From NCBI GenBank assembly GCA_021414235.1, contig JAIOOV010000004.1:342157-406156 (forward strand): 64,000 bases of DNA. The letters run 5' to 3'. A program made the translations under genes and the position numbers. This document shows positions 4,816 through 39,760 of this stretch, in pieces. This DNA is from Candidatus Parcubacteria bacterium (GTDB taxonomy: Bacteria > Patescibacteriota > Minisyncoccia > Phycocordibacterales > JAKFXT01). The notes under the pieces were generated by a model. The model saw nothing but the letters and a program-made list of their open reading frames with translations, was not told where the DNA came from and made no database searches. The stretch's first letter is position 1. Each line of letters begins with the position of its first letter.

Positions 4816-5120
4816 GAATTGAGGGGGCTTGGTTCAAAAGTTAACAGGCAACCTTTCGGTCGCCTGTAGAGGTGGATGTGGCCCTCGGGATGGGTGTACG
4901 CTTGGGCCTACATTTTTTATAGAGGTGTGCGGCTTAACTCGCGTTTGAGCTGCAAGGGTCACCTGTGATTGGCGATGCTGAGACTGCGAGAAGGTCTCAG
5001 TGAGGAAGAGCGTACAGTTATAGTAAAATATAAAAAGGTAGGTTGGTCAAACTAAAGCTCTCCAGATTACGTTGACTTTTAACGTTTTCGCGGGTAAGAT
5101 GTGCCCCTAATAACGCCCAT

Positions 5121-5591
5121 ATGCCAGAAGAAAAAGAGTATCTGACGCAGGAGAAATTCAACGAGCTTTCGACCGAGCTCCAGCGCCTCAAGACCACCCG
5201 CCGCAAGGAAATCGCGGATAGCCTTGAGTACGCCAAGTCTCTTGGAGACCTCTCCGAGAACGCAGAGTACCAGGAGGCTCGCGAGCTCCAGACGACCCTC
5301 GAAGAGCGCATCACCAAACTTGAGAGTGTGCTCAAGTCTGCTGCGATCGTCTCCGAGCGTCACAGCGACACCGTAGGCGTCGGCTCCTTCGTGGTGGTGA
5401 AGAAGGAAGGTGCCAAGGATACCCAGCGCTACGGCATCGTCGGCTCTGAAGAAGCCAACAGCGCTGAGGGCCGCATCTCTAATCGCTCGCCTTTGGGCGA
5501 GGCGCTCATGGGCCGCAAGCGCGGTGAGATGGTCACGGTGACGACTCCTAAGGGTCCGAGCAAGTACGAGGTGGTGGAGATTGAGAAGTAA
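5121..5591 (+). CDS. greA: Transcription elongation factor GreA
   Basis: Coiled-coil N-terminus with the acidic DLSENAEY tip motif, FKBP-like C-domain, 156 aa. Promoter-like TTGACT-17-TAAGAT at about 5071-5100. Confidence 0.9.
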   Translation: MPEEKEYLTQEKFNELSTELQRLKTTRRKEIADSLEYAKSLGDLSENAEYQEARELQTTLEERITKLESVLKSAAIVSERHSDTVGVGSFVVVKKEGAKDTQRYGIVGSEEANSAEGRISNRSPLGEALMGRKRGEMVTVTTPKGPSKYEVVEIEK

Positions 5592-37324: not shown

Positions 37325-37822
37325 ATGTCCTCTGGGACCTCCACGCCGATTACCGTTCAGGGCAGCACCCAGGCCGTCTCTAATAAGACCCAGGTTGCGG
37401 CCGTTGCCACGGTACTCGAGACCAAGAAGGAAAATGCTCAGCGTTCTCTTGAAGCAGTCGTTCGCGAATACTTCAGCGACACGCCGATGCTAGCTGAGGT
37501 CGCACGTTGCGAAACTCGCTTCCGTCACTATGACCGCAAGGGCGAAGTCCTGCGCGGAGAGATCGACAACAACGACGTCGGCATCATGCAGGTCAACGAA
37601 CGCTACCATTTGAAGCGCGCAGAAAAGCACGGCTTCGATATCTACTCCTTGGAAGGGAACTTGGCCTACGCCAAATACCTCTACCTGGAGGAAGGTAGCG
37701 ATCCTTGGGCAAGTTCATCGCGTTGCTGGGGAGGTTATCGCGAGAATGCGACTAAGAGCGTCGCGATCAAGTCTTCGGCTTTCGCCAAGATCTCAGTCCC
37801 CCTCGTGGATCAAAATAATTAA
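37325..37822 (+). CDS. Lysozyme-like / lytic-transglycosylase (SLT, GH23)-like domain protein
   Basis: The ARCETRF..DVGIMQVNERYH..LAYAKYLY pattern resembles the SLT catalytic Glu, the G(L/I)MQ(I/V) motif and the YL motif. No signal peptide seen. The frame is open upstream to 37211 with no ATG. Confidence 0.45.
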   Translation: MSSGTSTPITVQGSTQAVSNKTQVAAVATVLETKKENAQRSLEAVVREYFSDTPMLAEVARCETRFRHYDRKGEVLRGEIDNNDVGIMQVNERYHLKRAEKHGFDIYSLEGNLAYAKYLYLEEGSDPWASSSRCWGGYRENATKSVAIKSSAFAKISVPLVDQNN

Positions 37823-37889
37823 GTCTCAGTTGAGTTTGGTAGAAAGAAATTAAAACCATCTCGACAGGGAAGAGAAAGATCTTCCAAAA

Positions 37890-37925
37890 CAGACCCGGAC
37901 GAAAGTCCGGGTCTGGTTGTTTACT
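37890..37925 (+). terminator. Rho-independent terminator
   Basis: cagacccggac-gaaa-gtccgggtctg followed by gttgtttact. Confidence 0.65.
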
Positions 37926-37949
37926 GGTTCCCAGGCTCGGGGAAGAGAT

Positions 37950-37991
37950 TAGGGATACGTCGCACAATATATCTTTTGCGACGTATCCCTA
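37950..37991. repeat. Perfect 14-15-bp inverted repeat with a 12-nt loop
   Basis: tagggatacgtcgca-caatatatcttt-tgcgacgtatcccta. No U-tract on either side. Confidence 0.6.
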
Positions 37992-38150
37992 TACAAACCT
38001 GGGTTTGGTTCCCGCTAAGCTCTGTAAGACTTCTTTCCTTGAATCGACTTTCGAGCAGATCTTTTGCTGTACCTTCTCCCTTAGTGATGATGACAAAAAA
38101 TTCCTCAGGTCTTCCCTCGACTCATGACATTAAAATTCTTCTTTCAACCA

Positions 38151-38200
38151 GTTTTAAAAATTCGACTTTCGATAGGGGACTCTCTCCCCTCTTTTTCTTT
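38151..38200. repeat. Copy 1 of a ~50-bp hairpin repeat (AAAAATT..TAGGGGACTCTCTCCCCT followed by a T-run)
   Basis: Core AGGGGA-CTCTC-TCCCCT at 38173-38189, identical in all three copies. Confidence 0.7.
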
Positions 38201-38210
38201 AATGAAGAAT

Positions 38211-38250
38211 GGCCGACACTGCATCGTCCCCTGTGGGTGCAGTGTCGGCC
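38211..38250. repeat. Perfect 13-bp inverted repeat 18 nt downstream of the 38268-38690 gene
   Basis: ggccgacactgca-tcgtcccctgtgg-tgcagtgtcggcc. Confidence 0.6.
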
Positions 38251-38267
38251 GGTTAGATAGCGACGCG

Positions 38268-38690
38268 TTAATCGCCAAGAGTCCAGAGAATGTGTACGAC
38301 GTTGCAGGAGGGCGTTGAGCACCGGAAAGCGATCAGGGGGTTGCTGAGAAGGCTCCGATTCTTGTACTCGTCCTTCGCCTTCTCAGCTTCGGCTTCCTGA
38401 TCATTCGCTGCGGCGCGCTGAAGCGGACTGTCGCAGACCCGGCAAACCGGGATCTTATCCCTGTCTACCCGCTCCAGCTGGCAATCGGCGCAATGATAGG
38501 TCACGTTCCAGCGCTCTTCGTGGTAGTTGTTGACCTGGTACGTGAAGGTCCATCGATGCGCGCACTCCTCTCGTACTTTTGCGAGTTTCTTCTGCGCGGC
38601 TACGATCTGGGTAGAAGCGTTGGTGATGATGGTGGTAGCCCGGTCGATCTCGTTGAGATAGCGCCTGGCCAGGGCTCGCGTGGTCGGCAT
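38268..38690 (-). CDS. Hypothetical protein with a Zn-ribbon-like CxxC..CxxC
   Basis: AAGGGAGAG RBS, 140 aa, YHCADCQ..(14 aa)..CRVCD, N-terminal helical region. Confidence 0.45.
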   Translation of the reverse strand: MPTTRALARRYLNEIDRATTIITNASTQIVAAQKKLAKVREECAHRWTFTYQVNNYHEERWNVTYHCADCQLERVDRDKIPVCRVCDSPLQRAAANDQEAEAEKAKDEYKNRSLLSNPLIAFRCSTPSCNVVHILWTLGD

Positions 38691-38763
38691 TCCAACTCTC
38701 CCTTAAGTAGTTCCGAGGAGATATTCCTGTATTTGGAGGTTTTTGTCTAGGGATTCCTAGGGT

Positions 38764-38812
38764 CTATCAAAAATTGGTTTTCAGTAGGGGACTCTCTCCC
38801 CTTTTTTTGTAT
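38764..38812. repeat. Copy 2 of the hairpin repeat
   Basis: Core AGGGGACTCTCTCCCCT at 38786-38802, followed by ttttttgtatg. Confidence 0.7.
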
Positions 38813-38835
38813 GAAAAGAAAAAGACCGCCGTCGG

Positions 38836-39594
38836 TTAGACATTGGTCTTAGTTTCTTGCCGACGAGCGATGACAGATTCTATCTTCTTAAGAAGCTCGG
38901 GTGTGCATTCGTCTCGACGGAAAAGAAGTCGCGGCTTGGGATTTTTTTCTGTGGCAAGCGGATTCCTGAACTGGCAGATTTCGATCCATTCAGTTTGGCT
39001 GAAAGCGATTCCGAAGTATCGGTTCCAGCCGCAATCTGGATAGAGACTGAAGTCGACCGCGTCTCGGTCGTGGTCTTGATAGGCGTTCCAGGCATGAAGC
39101 ATCGGCGCATTTAAGCTTGGACCAAAGACGAGGCCTTCAACATAGGTCATTGGCGGCCAGTGCTCGTTGACTGGCTCCTGACGTCTTTGATTATGAGCGT
39201 ACATCAAGATCGTCGCGTTGAAGAAACAGCATCGGGGCTTAGGCTCAATATGCGGGCGCCTCTTCCAGCGCAAGGGTGTATAGTCGGTCCCGTAACGCTG
39301 CAAGAAGTTGAGAGCCTCTGAATGCATGAAGTCCAGGTAGTTCATGTACCACTTAAGCCGCCAGGATGGAAGCATGTTTCGAGTAGCCGGATCGCCTCGC
39401 TGGAGATTCTGAAGAAATGGAACTATCTGATGCAGGCTCTCGTCGTGTCCATTCGGGAAGTACCTCGTGAACATGCTGTCGAGGTTTTTACGCCTTTCAG
39501 TGGCCTCTGGGGTGTTGCCATGAATTTCGTCCCAATAGGTTTTTGGGGGCGGGAGACAGAACTGAGTCTGTGTCCCAGTTGGCTGATTAGCCAT
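38836..39594 (-). CDS. Transglutaminase-like (papain-fold) domain protein
   Basis: Candidate Cys-His-Asp triad: PRCCFFNATILMYAH ... MLHAWNAY ... DHDRDAVDFS resembles the transglutaminase-core G.C..fA...HAW.EV..fDPT. 252 aa. Confidence 0.45.
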   Translation of the reverse strand: MANQPTGTQTQFCLPPPKTYWDEIHGNTPEATERRKNLDSMFTRYFPNGHDESLHQIVPFLQNLQRGDPATRNMLPSWRLKWYMNYLDFMHSEALNFLQRYGTDYTPLRWKRRPHIEPKPRCCFFNATILMYAHNQRRQEPVNEHWPPMTYVEGLVFGPSLNAPMLHAWNAYQDHDRDAVDFSLYPDCGWNRYFGIAFSQTEWIEICQFRNPLATEKNPKPRLLFRRDECTPELLKKIESVIARRQETKTNV

Positions 39595-39679
39595 GAGACT
39601 CTCCCTTCGGTTTAGTCAAATAACGCTTCAAGTGGGATATTCTCTAAAATTCTTCTTTTTGTCTAGAGACTCAAGATTT

Positions 39680-39730
39680 GTCCCAAAAATTTTGGCCCTC
39701 AATAGGGGACTCTCTCCCCTATTTTGTTTT
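39680..39730. repeat. Copy 3 of the hairpin repeat
   Basis: Core AGGGGACTCTCTCCCCT at 39704-39720, followed by attttgtttt. Confidence 0.7.
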
Positions 39731-39760
39731 GACTACTTAATACTCTTAAACTCTTTTAAT

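Follow-up and report, generated by a model that had tools for sequence, protein, structure and literature searches.

A short intergenic hairpin module occurs three times, always in the same orientation, in a 64-kb window of a Candidatus Parcubacteria chromosome (the window being the whole stretch of DNA analysed), and we found it in seven further Parcubacteria genomes in the corresponding syntenic position, where extra copies go with extra genes in a variable slot (three copies in the window, one or two in relatives). On our best reading, the three window copies are paralogs of a Parcubacteria-specific intergenic module. From sequence comparison we give a probability of roughly 0.4 to the module being a conserved intrinsic terminator on the + strand, placed at the upstream edge of each minus-strand unit and travelling with genes that enter or leave the slot. 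Among the possibilities raised in an earlier note on this DNA, + strand terminators or the ends of small + strand RNAs fit best, on the grounds of + strand pairing, T-rich tails and promoter-like sites in one relative (L034); the conservation of the module across Parcubacteria at one syntenic locus, where it tracks gene gain and loss, is new relative to that note. Parcubacteria and other CPR bacteria are uncultivated, with transcription signals and genome dynamics that are almost unknown, and we found nothing in the literature on such elements in them. The locus is an easily recognised conserved non-coding landmark that combines a reverse-facing terminator-like hairpin with a second inverted repeat, and the gene slot between these two repeats and the housekeeping genes differs in content among close relatives. 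As a terminator, the module would show that very small genomes can have a dedicated insulator against antisense transcription; as a recombination site, it would reveal a novel means of single-gene shuffling in these symbionts.

The core of the module, TAGGGGACTCTCTCCCCT, has three exact + strand matches in the window (Table 1) and no further match at up to three mismatches, and three matches were reached in none of 100 dinucleotide shuffles (expected 0.08). With filters off, a covariance model of the module recovered the three copies from the whole window at E values of ~1e-9 to 1e-10 and nothing else up to E = 10. The three same-orientation hairpins with a + strand T-run described in the earlier note are thus borne out by exact matches, shuffles and covariance model. 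Each repeat extends over ~45-56 nt, with 78-80% identity across the window copies, and runs from AAAAATT through 9-11 nt to a stem with a CTCTC loop and then a T-run. The hairpin is a near-perfect 19-bp dyad (TAGGGGA-N5-TCCCCTA) whose stem comprises 6 bp in window copies 1 and 2 and 9 bp in copy 3, with four G-C pairs and a 5-nt loop; stem energies are -9 to -14 kcal/mol for stems of 6-9 bp, compared to the longer, 8-12-bp stems of the genome's usual terminators, and 61-nt folds of the module were not better than shuffles. After the stem, 7 T fall within 9 nt in all three window copies, and a terminator scan called every copy on the + strand and no minus-strand site at any of them. CRISPR arrays have repeats of 23-47 nt and spacers of 21-72 nt; with copies spaced 612 and 918 nt apart and protein genes between them, we rejected a CRISPR array, in agreement with the earlier note.

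Table 1. Features of the module locus, in positions of the 64-kb window.
Feature	Position	Strand	Basis and remarks
Conserved non-coding unit, after copy 1	37885..38146	-	Sequence comparison across relatives; no Rfam family
Bidirectional terminator, within the unit	37890-37915		
Pyrimidine segment CUCUUCCCC, within the unit	37947-37939		
Second inverted repeat GTCGCAAAAGATATATTGTGCGAC, within the unit	37959-37982 (core); 37950-37991 (outer stem)		
Purine block GAGGGAAGA, within the unit	38118-38110		
14-nt exact repeat TAAAATTCTTCTTT	38131..38144, also 39645-39658	+	Repeat search; -10-like TAAAAT inside
Module copy 1 (AAAAATT, 10 nt, hairpin core 38173-38190, T-run)	38147..38202	+	Adjoins the conserved non-coding unit; exact core; covariance model 64.1 bits; terminator-like on +
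Own terminator hairpin of the 140-aa gene	38211..38250	-	13-bp stem GGCCGACACTGCA/TGCAGTGTCGGCC, then AUUCUUCAUU; before copy 1 on the gene strand; read from sequence
Cargo gene 2, 140 aa, orphan	38268..38690	-	Two CxxC pairs (zinc-ribbon-like); missing from the syntenic relative L022
Sigma-70-like promoter, 140-aa gene	38721..38749	-	TAGACA (38749-38744), 17 nt, GAATAT (38726-38721); read from sequence; repeat search
Module copy 2 (core 38785-38802), between the 252-aa and 140-aa genes	38759..38814	+	Exact core, terminator scan, covariance model
Short hairpin ACCGACGGCGGU and U-run, end of the 252-aa gene	38812..38836	-	Before copy 2; kept in L022
Cargo gene 1, 252 aa	38836..39594	-	No Pfam family; invariant C122/H166/D180 in the family; weak transglutaminase/papain-fold resemblance
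Sigma-70-like promoter, 252-aa gene	39637..39665	-	TAGACA (39665-39660), 17 nt, GAATAT (39642-39637); read from sequence; kept in L022 and L023
Module copy 3 (core 39703-39720; 9-bp stem 39701-39723), between the kinase-like and 252-aa genes	39677..39732	+	Exact core, terminator scan, covariance model

Each copy lies 24-68 nt past a minus-strand stop codon, as the earlier note had recognised in placing the repeats downstream of minus-strand genes, a description that was incomplete: each copy also lies upstream of the next minus-strand unit, namely the 252-aa gene (copy 3), the 140-aa gene (copy 2) or the conserved non-coding stretch (copy 1). Read along the gene strand, copy 3 is followed after 38 nt by the start of the 252-aa gene's promoter, and copy 2 after 36 nt by that of the 140-aa gene. 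On the + strand, the TAAAAT within TAAAATTCTTCTTT precedes the hairpins of copies 1 and 3 by 37-52 nt. Kinase-like, HD, M23, GluRS, EVE and lysozyme-like genes make up the neighbourhood.

Pairing within the hairpin is strand-specific. We compared 12 copies drawn from 8 genomes. Each of their 72 stem positions is paired on the + (T-run) strand, as Watson-Crick in 66 cases and as G.U in 6, and on the gene strand those 6 are A.C mismatches, distributed over six copies; this G.U evidence amounts to only two or three independent substitutions. A T-rich tail, with 5-7 T among the first 9 nt past the stem, accompanies 11 of the 12 copies, the exception being that of L053, which has no T-run. Pair counting gave 95.8% paired positions versus 67-83% for slid controls, in an alignment that also took in a misaligned hairpin from L055. 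In the covariation check proposed in the earlier note, every stem position paired on the + strand, and the family showed no pair with both of its bases exchanged; the L055 hairpin alone is fully different. That Taylorbacteria genome carries a 7-bp hairpin, GGAAGGG/CCCTTCC, at the same position, so structure is kept there where sequence is not.

On the terminator reading, the module core would be a Rho-independent hairpin that works on the + strand and thus faces the opposite way to the flanking genes; each minus-strand transcription unit (the 252-aa gene, the orphan 140-aa gene, the non-coding unit) has one module at its upstream edge. Its most likely role is to stop short + strand transcripts before they read back into the preceding gene; these would be small RNAs, or else divergent or antisense RNAs that start in the neighbouring promoter regions. 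We infer both that such transcripts exist in the host and that they stop at the hairpin. Like known Rho-independent terminators, including antisense and divergent ones, the module is intergenic, has on one strand a T-run immediately behind a G+C-rich stem-loop, tolerates G.U variation on that strand and is flagged by a consensus scan. Unlike them, it faces against all annotated neighbours, has a stem shorter than is usual for the genome, carries AAAAATT 9-11 nt upstream and appears once per transcription unit. Terminators normally conserve structure, not sequence; in this module, however, hardly any base of the loop or of either arm differs between the GC-rich window and the visibly AT-rich L034. 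This near-invariance counts against a terminator, as do the short stems, the 61-nt folds, the missing T-run of L053, the lack of two-sided pair changes within the family and the promoter results below for the window and its GC-richer relatives.

Candidate + strand promoters differ between genomes. In L034, the T-run strand holds the two best sigma-70-like sites of the region. TTTACA-18-TATAAT (11/12) stands 56 nt before copy 2 of L034, and TTGAAG-16-TATAAT (10/12) stands ahead of a small hydrophobic ORF whose end is 47 nt short of the L034 copy 1; promoter-like matches in this AT-rich genome are near shuffle expectation overall (8 found, 5.8 expected). GC-richer relatives have weak or inconsistent + strand promoters, the candidates in the window are all weak, and none of its module copies marks the end of a + strand gene. 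We rejected a leader or riboswitch serving some + strand gene past the motif, since the genes there are unrelated in L053, L045 and L055 and absent in the window and L022, and likewise an N4- or T7-like hairpin phage promoter, as the window is bacterial chromosome with housekeeping genes and no phage match.

Slot genes appear to have been gained and lost as blocks of gene plus module, which would account for three copies here and one or two in relatives. Compared to L022, the window has an extra whole 612-bp block consisting of promoter, 140-aa gene, terminator and own module; its junction, that of the sole indel mapped, is at AATTTTT and not inside the longer identical core. L034 has two copies and a 408-nt insert, and its relative L045 has one copy. 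Other slot genes came without an extra copy (a 168-aa gene in L022 and an AAA ATPase in L023), and different lineages have unrelated genes on the unit's motif side. Window copy 2 is the ortholog of the unit-adjacent copy of L022, with 95% identity to that copy (L022-2) through CCAATTTTT. For the orthologous distal copies, window copy 3 and L022-1, all 22 of 22 core bases are the same within flanks that are 73% identical (0.73^18 ~0.004), which indicates that each copy is constrained in its own right.

Pattern scans covered genome, metagenome and viral contig collections. Among ~186,000 species-representative genomes they returned 20 stretches from unrelated phyla, at or below a rough chance estimate, of which 19 had a single match and one, in an unrelated Oscillibacter (L010), had two; none had the full module. 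All collection scans together gave 42 stretches, two of them from the module family (one with two copies) and the rest, besides the Oscillibacter, isolated single matches.

The non-coding unit beside copy 1 contains the second inverted repeat, and in the Parcubacteria genomes compared one module copy always lies 203-220 nt from it. By inspection, this repeat consists of two ~11-bp inverted arms around a 6-bp centre (ACGTCGCAAAA-GATATA-TTGTGCGACGT), which fits an Xer/dif-type core layout; the dif site has 28 bp (PMC1914069). A replication terminus with dif and Ter-like sites was considered and rejected (genes converge at ~37.9 kb; GC skew is positive across the whole window). In L065 the second repeat occurs alone, directly after the terminator of a protein gene, and the unit is therefore separable. 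No Rfam covariance model came near significance on either strand of the window, L034 or L045, even at permissive thresholds. The 300-nt region folds equally well on both strands (z of -5.8 and -6.3), and RNAalifold across distant genomes retained only the two hairpins; for these reasons and because of the lone repeat in L065, we rejected a single 300-nt structured RNA that includes the motif.

Several other readings of the module were weighed against a + strand terminator. Ordinary or bidirectional termination of the adjacent minus-strand genes would suit the position of the copies shortly after minus-strand stops, as well as the kinase-like gene, which has no other hairpin before copy 3, but we consider it very unlikely: on that strand UAYYGAAA comes next to the stem and the T-run starts only 8-14 nt further on, the stem itself carries an A.C mismatch in six copies, and separate hairpin and U-run terminators precede the module at the ends of the 140-aa and 252-aa genes and of their counterparts in L022 and L023, so that these genes do not need it. 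The late T-run supports the earlier note's view that the hairpins fit poorly as minus-gene terminators and, with the genes' own hairpins, weakens its suggestion of bidirectional ones. A dispersed, mobile REP/MITE-like repeat, also suggested there, is hardly credible. The module shares with REP/BIME elements a short intergenic palindrome in several copies, here all in the same orientation, but it is neither dispersed nor abundant: the covariance model included, no other copy exists in the 64 kb, the collection scans gave mainly single core matches, and the position is fixed and syntenic across genomes. The search of related genomes recommended in the earlier note yielded further modules at this one locus. 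No target-site duplications flank the copies, and no transposase, of RAYT type or other, was seen among the ~20 window proteins scanned. An operator, in which a dimeric protein would bind the 19-bp palindrome and co-regulate the 252-aa gene, the 140-aa gene and the non-coding unit, is improbable. The near-perfect dyad, sequence conservation that includes its centre and a motif that is always upstream of a promoter-like region (TAGACA-N17-GAATAT for both genes; 53-62 nt before the GAGGGAAGA block of the unit, by manual count) agree with it; however, the distance from motif to -35 element varies without helical phasing (38, 36, 32 and 7-8 nt), the motif is too far upstream for simple occlusion, the cargo between the L034 copies is seemingly read from the opposite strand, the motif has no conserved candidate regulator next to it, and the T-run and A-run flanks and one-sided G.U pattern are left unexplained. 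We hold it to be marginally less probable still that the module is an RNA element on the gene strand, its purine half AGGGGAGAGAG forming the 5' strand of a long-range helix with CUCUYCCCU located 3' of the second inverted repeat in a ~260-300-nt ncRNA, and its extra copies serving as mimics or targets of the pyrimidine segment. RNAduplex pairing of these segments beats 300 of 300 shuffles in three genomes (L022, L053, L054) and is matched or beaten by only 5-7 of them in the window and L034, the fifth position is by inspection G-C in the window and L022, G.U in L053 and L054 and A-U in L034, the outer stem of the second repeat has 9 G.U on the gene strand versus 1 A.C (L022, L053, L045), and the distance from motif to repeat is constant. 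Against this, pairing is not above shuffles in L045, L055 and L023, RNAalifold gives the pyrimidine segment another partner, the purine block GAGGGAAGA, with the motif forming a hairpin by itself, no evident promoter precedes the motif, and the distal copies have no partner segment; the lone second repeat of L065 and the Rfam result also speak against it.

A site-specific recombination site of att or attC type, made up of TAGGGG-ACTCTCT-CCCCTA and the nearby AAAAATT, at which cassettes would move in and out beside the non-coding unit under a recombinase encoded elsewhere, is unlikely, though the most probable of the rival readings. It would explain the whole-block difference from L022 with its junction at AATTTTT, the second copy and insert of L034 relative to L045, and the unrelated motif-side genes, and the identity of arms and centre in every copy is as expected for a core site that needs overlap identity. 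Recombination does occur at the locus in other lineages, with two direct copies of ATATTGTGCGAAC beside an Xer-like integrase (L056/L057) and phage-like genes that adjoin the second inverted repeat in L023, and a distant homolog of the 252-aa gene lies directly after a tRNA gene in L025. As in integron attC arrays, including integrase-less clusters, imperfect palindromes in the same orientation stand between single genes, one site per gene, copy number follows gene content, and the mapped junction falls at a short conserved block beside the hairpin. Unlike integrons, whose cassettes are promoterless ORFs, each gene here has TAGACA-N17-GAATAT and a terminator, and no IntI-type integrase is nearby among the ORFs scanned; by reading, the module lacks the RYYYAAC/GTTRRRY core sites of attC, and it measures ~45-56 nt versus 57-141 nt. 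Repeats of islands at tRNA, tmRNA or small-RNA genes are similar in their direct-repeat array with an intact conserved non-coding locus at one end and variable cargo, and in that other lineages have integrase or phage genes at this locus; they differ in that the present "islands" are single genes of 0.6-0.9 kb with no integrase, the distal repeats show conservation by descent and not decay, and the conserved locus is only a putative RNA gene. Further points against a recombination site are that no integrase occurs near the module in L022 and L023 (precomputed Pfam lists) or among the ~20 window ORFs, that the integrase-linked repeats of L056 belong to the second inverted repeat and not to the hairpin motif, that the 168-aa gene and the AAA ATPase arrived with no extra copy, that GC3 does not set the cargo genes clearly apart, and that direct-repeat deletion accounts for the copy numbers with no recombinase needed. 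Orthologous copies are moreover conserved by descent, which implies a host-level function. We regard as slightly less likely again the more specific proposal that the module is the attachment site of an undescribed CPR gene-cassette capture system, an integrase-distal analogue of integron or Xer-module arrays; such a system would move single genes with their own promoter and terminator beside a non-coding locus bearing an Xer/dif-like core site, the recombinase being encoded elsewhere.

The cargo genes themselves have no PADLOC match as defence genes, and among ~20 window ORFs and proteins scanned there was neither a phage integrase nor a transposase. A phage origin of the cargo was rejected given only a faint PHROG match and no viral relatives, and a foreign composition of the cassettes was rejected because GC3 is near that of the neighbours, being equal for the 140-aa gene and only slightly lower for the 252-aa gene. 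In a within-species comparison across L058-L063 the sequences are identical and gene calls alone differ. The low GC content of the region is due to its long AT-rich intergenic stretches.

Three copies of a short hairpin repeat in one orientation, as an earlier note had described them, are borne out by our analysis. The exact 18-mer TAGGGGACTCTCTCCCCT occurs three times in the window, on the + strand only, with no other match at up to three mismatches, and 0 of 100 dinucleotide shuffles reach three matches. The repeat extends past this core, with about 45-56 nt alignable at 78-80% identity between copies, and comprises, in order, AAAAATT, 9-11 variable bases, a stem capped by the loop CTCTC and, last, a T-run. 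An unfiltered covariance model built from 12 copies recovered just the three known copies in the window, with no further match there up to E = 10. The stems are 6 bp long (9 bp in copy 3, W3), shorter than the 8-12-bp stems of this genome's typical terminators, and whereas those each differ in sequence, the motif hairpins are the only ones with a common sequence.

The window is bacterial chromosome (encoding GluRS, MurG, FtsW, M23 peptidase, DnaK/DnaJ, RpoA and MreB), with genes mostly on the + strand up to 37822 and on the - strand from 38268 onward. On the minus strand a kinase-like gene is followed by copy 3, the 252-aa gene, copy 2, the 140-aa gene and copy 1. Beyond copy 1 come some 260 nt of non-coding DNA, then a bidirectional terminator and the convergent 165-aa lysozyme-like gene. 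The copies thus do lie downstream of minus-strand genes, as claimed earlier, but each also lies upstream of the next unit. The 252-aa and 140-aa genes have in common a TAGACA-N17-GAATAT promoter-like layout, starting 36-38 nt past the motif, and the ribosome-binding site AAGGGAGAG. GC3 of the 252-aa gene is slightly below that of its neighbours, and the 140-aa protein has no homolog but itself among 5.8 billion proteins. At the convergent switch near 37.9 kb genes pass from mostly + to entirely -, yet GC skew is positive over all 64 kb, so the coding strand is C-rich over some 26 kb of housekeeping genes.

Features of the module locus in the window and in compared contigs (L-numbers)
Feature	Location	Strand	Remarks
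TAGGGGACTCTCTCCCCT (copies 1-3)	window 38173, 38785, 39703	+	
Protein identical to NCBI K8Q93_03050	window 37325-37822		Candidatus Parcubacteria bacterium, 544-kb contig
140-aa protein	window 38268-38690	-	two CxxC pairs; GC3 0.73, like neighbours
~260-nt conserved non-coding stretch	window 37885-38146	-	between copy 1 and convergent 165-aa gene
Same stretch in relatives	L022 10830-11095; L053 1600-1910; L054 2400-2680; L034 2000-2330; L045 700-1030		
Second inverted repeat, GTCGCAAAAGATATATTGTGCGAC	window 37950-37991 (core 37959-37982)		conserved in Parcubacteria, Taylorbacteria and Paceibacterota loci
ATATTGTGCGAAC direct copies	L056 6528-6540, 7203-7215 (also L057)		second ~37 nt upstream of 316-aa Xer-like integrase gene

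We retrieved relatives' contigs by way of proteins homologous to the 252-aa product or to the 165-aa anchor; in this sample only eight genomes have the element. L022, L034 and L023 have two copies (one degenerate in L023), and L053, L054 and L045 have one. One copy is invariably found 203-220 nt upstream, on the gene strand, of a second inverted repeat (consensus GTCG[C/T]AAA(A)GAT[A/G]TATTGT[G/A]CGAC) that adjoins the anchor gene. Genes on the motif side differ among lineages, making this a variable slot. In L055 (Taylorbacteria) a different 7-bp hairpin stands where the module would be, which shows that a hairpin is retained despite altered sequence.

The full module thus occurs at one syntenic locus, and scans of wider collections for its core, a search of the kind the earlier note proposed, did not show it dispersed. 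A 17-mer scan of about 186,000 species-representative genomes returned 20 stretches in unrelated phyla (19 with one match, L010 with two), not above a rough chance estimate. Among 21 metagenome stretches the full module was present in two only (L034; L032/L045), the others having the bare core; viral contigs gave one unrelated match, and no Rfam family matched the module locus on either strand. In L010, an unrelated Oscillibacter, exact 17-nt cores at 5085-5101 and 5272-5288, 187 nt apart, are embedded in a longer stem (GGGCAGGGGA...TCCCCTGCC) with the rest of the module absent, probably an independent terminator-like repeat. Six Thermodesulfobacteriota/Syntrophobacterales contigs (L009, L013, L036, L041, L042, L048) carry the 17-mer within one conserved, apparently coding stretch, unrelated to the module.

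On the T-run strand the stem pairs at 72 of 72 positions over the 12 copies (66 Watson-Crick, 6 G.U), and the six G.U positions are A.C mismatches on the gene strand; 11 of the 12 copies have 5-7 T within 9 nt past the stem. A pair-count tool gave 95.8% paired versus 67-83% in slid controls, on an alignment that also took in the misaligned L055 hairpin. As to covariation, which the earlier note had proposed to test, no pair within the module family is changed on both sides, and with only two or three independent substitutions the evidence favouring the T-run strand is suggestive, not conclusive. In AT-rich L034 the region's two best sigma-70-like sites are both on this strand, one of them 56 nt ahead of copy 2. 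The other, a 10/12 promoter-like site, precedes a small cysteine-rich hydrophobic ORF of 47-50 aa (site and ORF at L034 2515-2757 (+)), which stops 47 nt short of copy 1; the -10 reaches to the ORF's ATG, so that the mRNA would be leaderless. Next to this ORF is a second hydrophobic one (2328-2504). The GC-richer genomes show weak + strand promoters. Window copies 1 and 3 (W1, W3) have TAAAATTCTTCTTT in common upstream of the hairpin, and a -10-like GATATT on the + strand of W3 coincides in part with GAATAT of the gene strand, an overlap that could make this promoter bidirectional.

Window copy 2 and its upstream flank match the unit-adjacent copy of L022 at 95% identity up to CCAATTTTT, beyond which L022 runs into the unit that in the window follows copy 1. 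The window is therefore longer by 612 bp, made up of a promoter, the 140-aa gene, a terminator and its own module, with the junction at AATTTTT, outside the longer identical core. A second copy and an insert of 408 nt set L034 apart from L045, which has a single copy there. A 168-aa gene (L022) and an AAA ATPase gene (L023) occupy the slot without an extra copy. Between W3 and L022-1, the orthologous distal copies, the core is identical at 22/22 bases while the flanks agree at 73%, an argument that each copy is under constraint.

We tentatively read the module hairpin as a + strand terminator, at a probability of about 0.4. This would account for a hairpin followed by a T-run, for G.U pairs confined to one strand, for the substitute hairpin of L055 and for the transcription units of L034; the + strand transcripts themselves we infer in this organism, and the extreme sequence conservation is left unexplained. 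Sequence invariance, block-wise indels and the variable slot would all follow from a recombination site, a possible but doubtful reading, as it comes without a recombinase among the roughly 20 window ORFs scanned and is at odds with the vertical conservation. An operator, which the palindrome suits, is unlikely given the variable spacing.

A role in gene-strand RNA would fit the long-range complementarity of the motif, whose purine half matches the pyrimidine segment just 3' of the second repeat; the A.C mismatches and the distal copies do not fit, and we consider this role quite unlikely. The pyrimidine segment is also complementary to another purine block, which lies 53-62 nt downstream of the motif. 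Termination of the minus-strand genes, already judged an imperfect fit in the earlier note, is largely excluded and very improbable: the 140-aa gene has its own terminator (13-bp stem) ahead of copy 1, and the 252-aa gene ends in a short hairpin and U-run ahead of copy 2. The suggested REP/MITE-like element did not hold up, given the absence of further copies in the window, 64 kb of the 544-kb source contig, and the chance-level genome matches; it too is largely excluded and scarcely credible.

Besides a shared terminator, the non-coding stretch next to copy 1 contains the purine blocks GAGGGAAGA and CUAGGGGAGAAGG and, complementary to these, a CUCUUCCCU segment. The stretch matches no Rfam family; it may represent either a complex DNA site or an RNA gene of Parcubacteria not described before. 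Its second inverted repeat resembles Xer/dif core sites in its 11-6-11 layout, dif being 28 bp long (PMC1914069). There is no support for a chromosomal dif site, as the GC skew keeps its sign at 38 kb. On the gene strand the outer stem of the repeat has 9 G.U versus 1 A.C, and a symmetric variant (GTCGTA...TACGAC) occurs in L055 and in L065, where the repeat stands alone directly past the terminator of a small membrane-protein gene. In L023 (11040-13206) synteny breaks right after the repeat, and the 140-, 280- and 98-aa genes that come next look phage-structural by eye, with no PHROG match for any of them. L056 and L057 carry two direct copies of the repeat's 3' half, 675 nt apart, beside an Xer-like integrase, an arrangement suggestive of integration at this inverted repeat. 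A possible third, degenerate ATATTGTGCGAAC copy lies past the integrase in L056.
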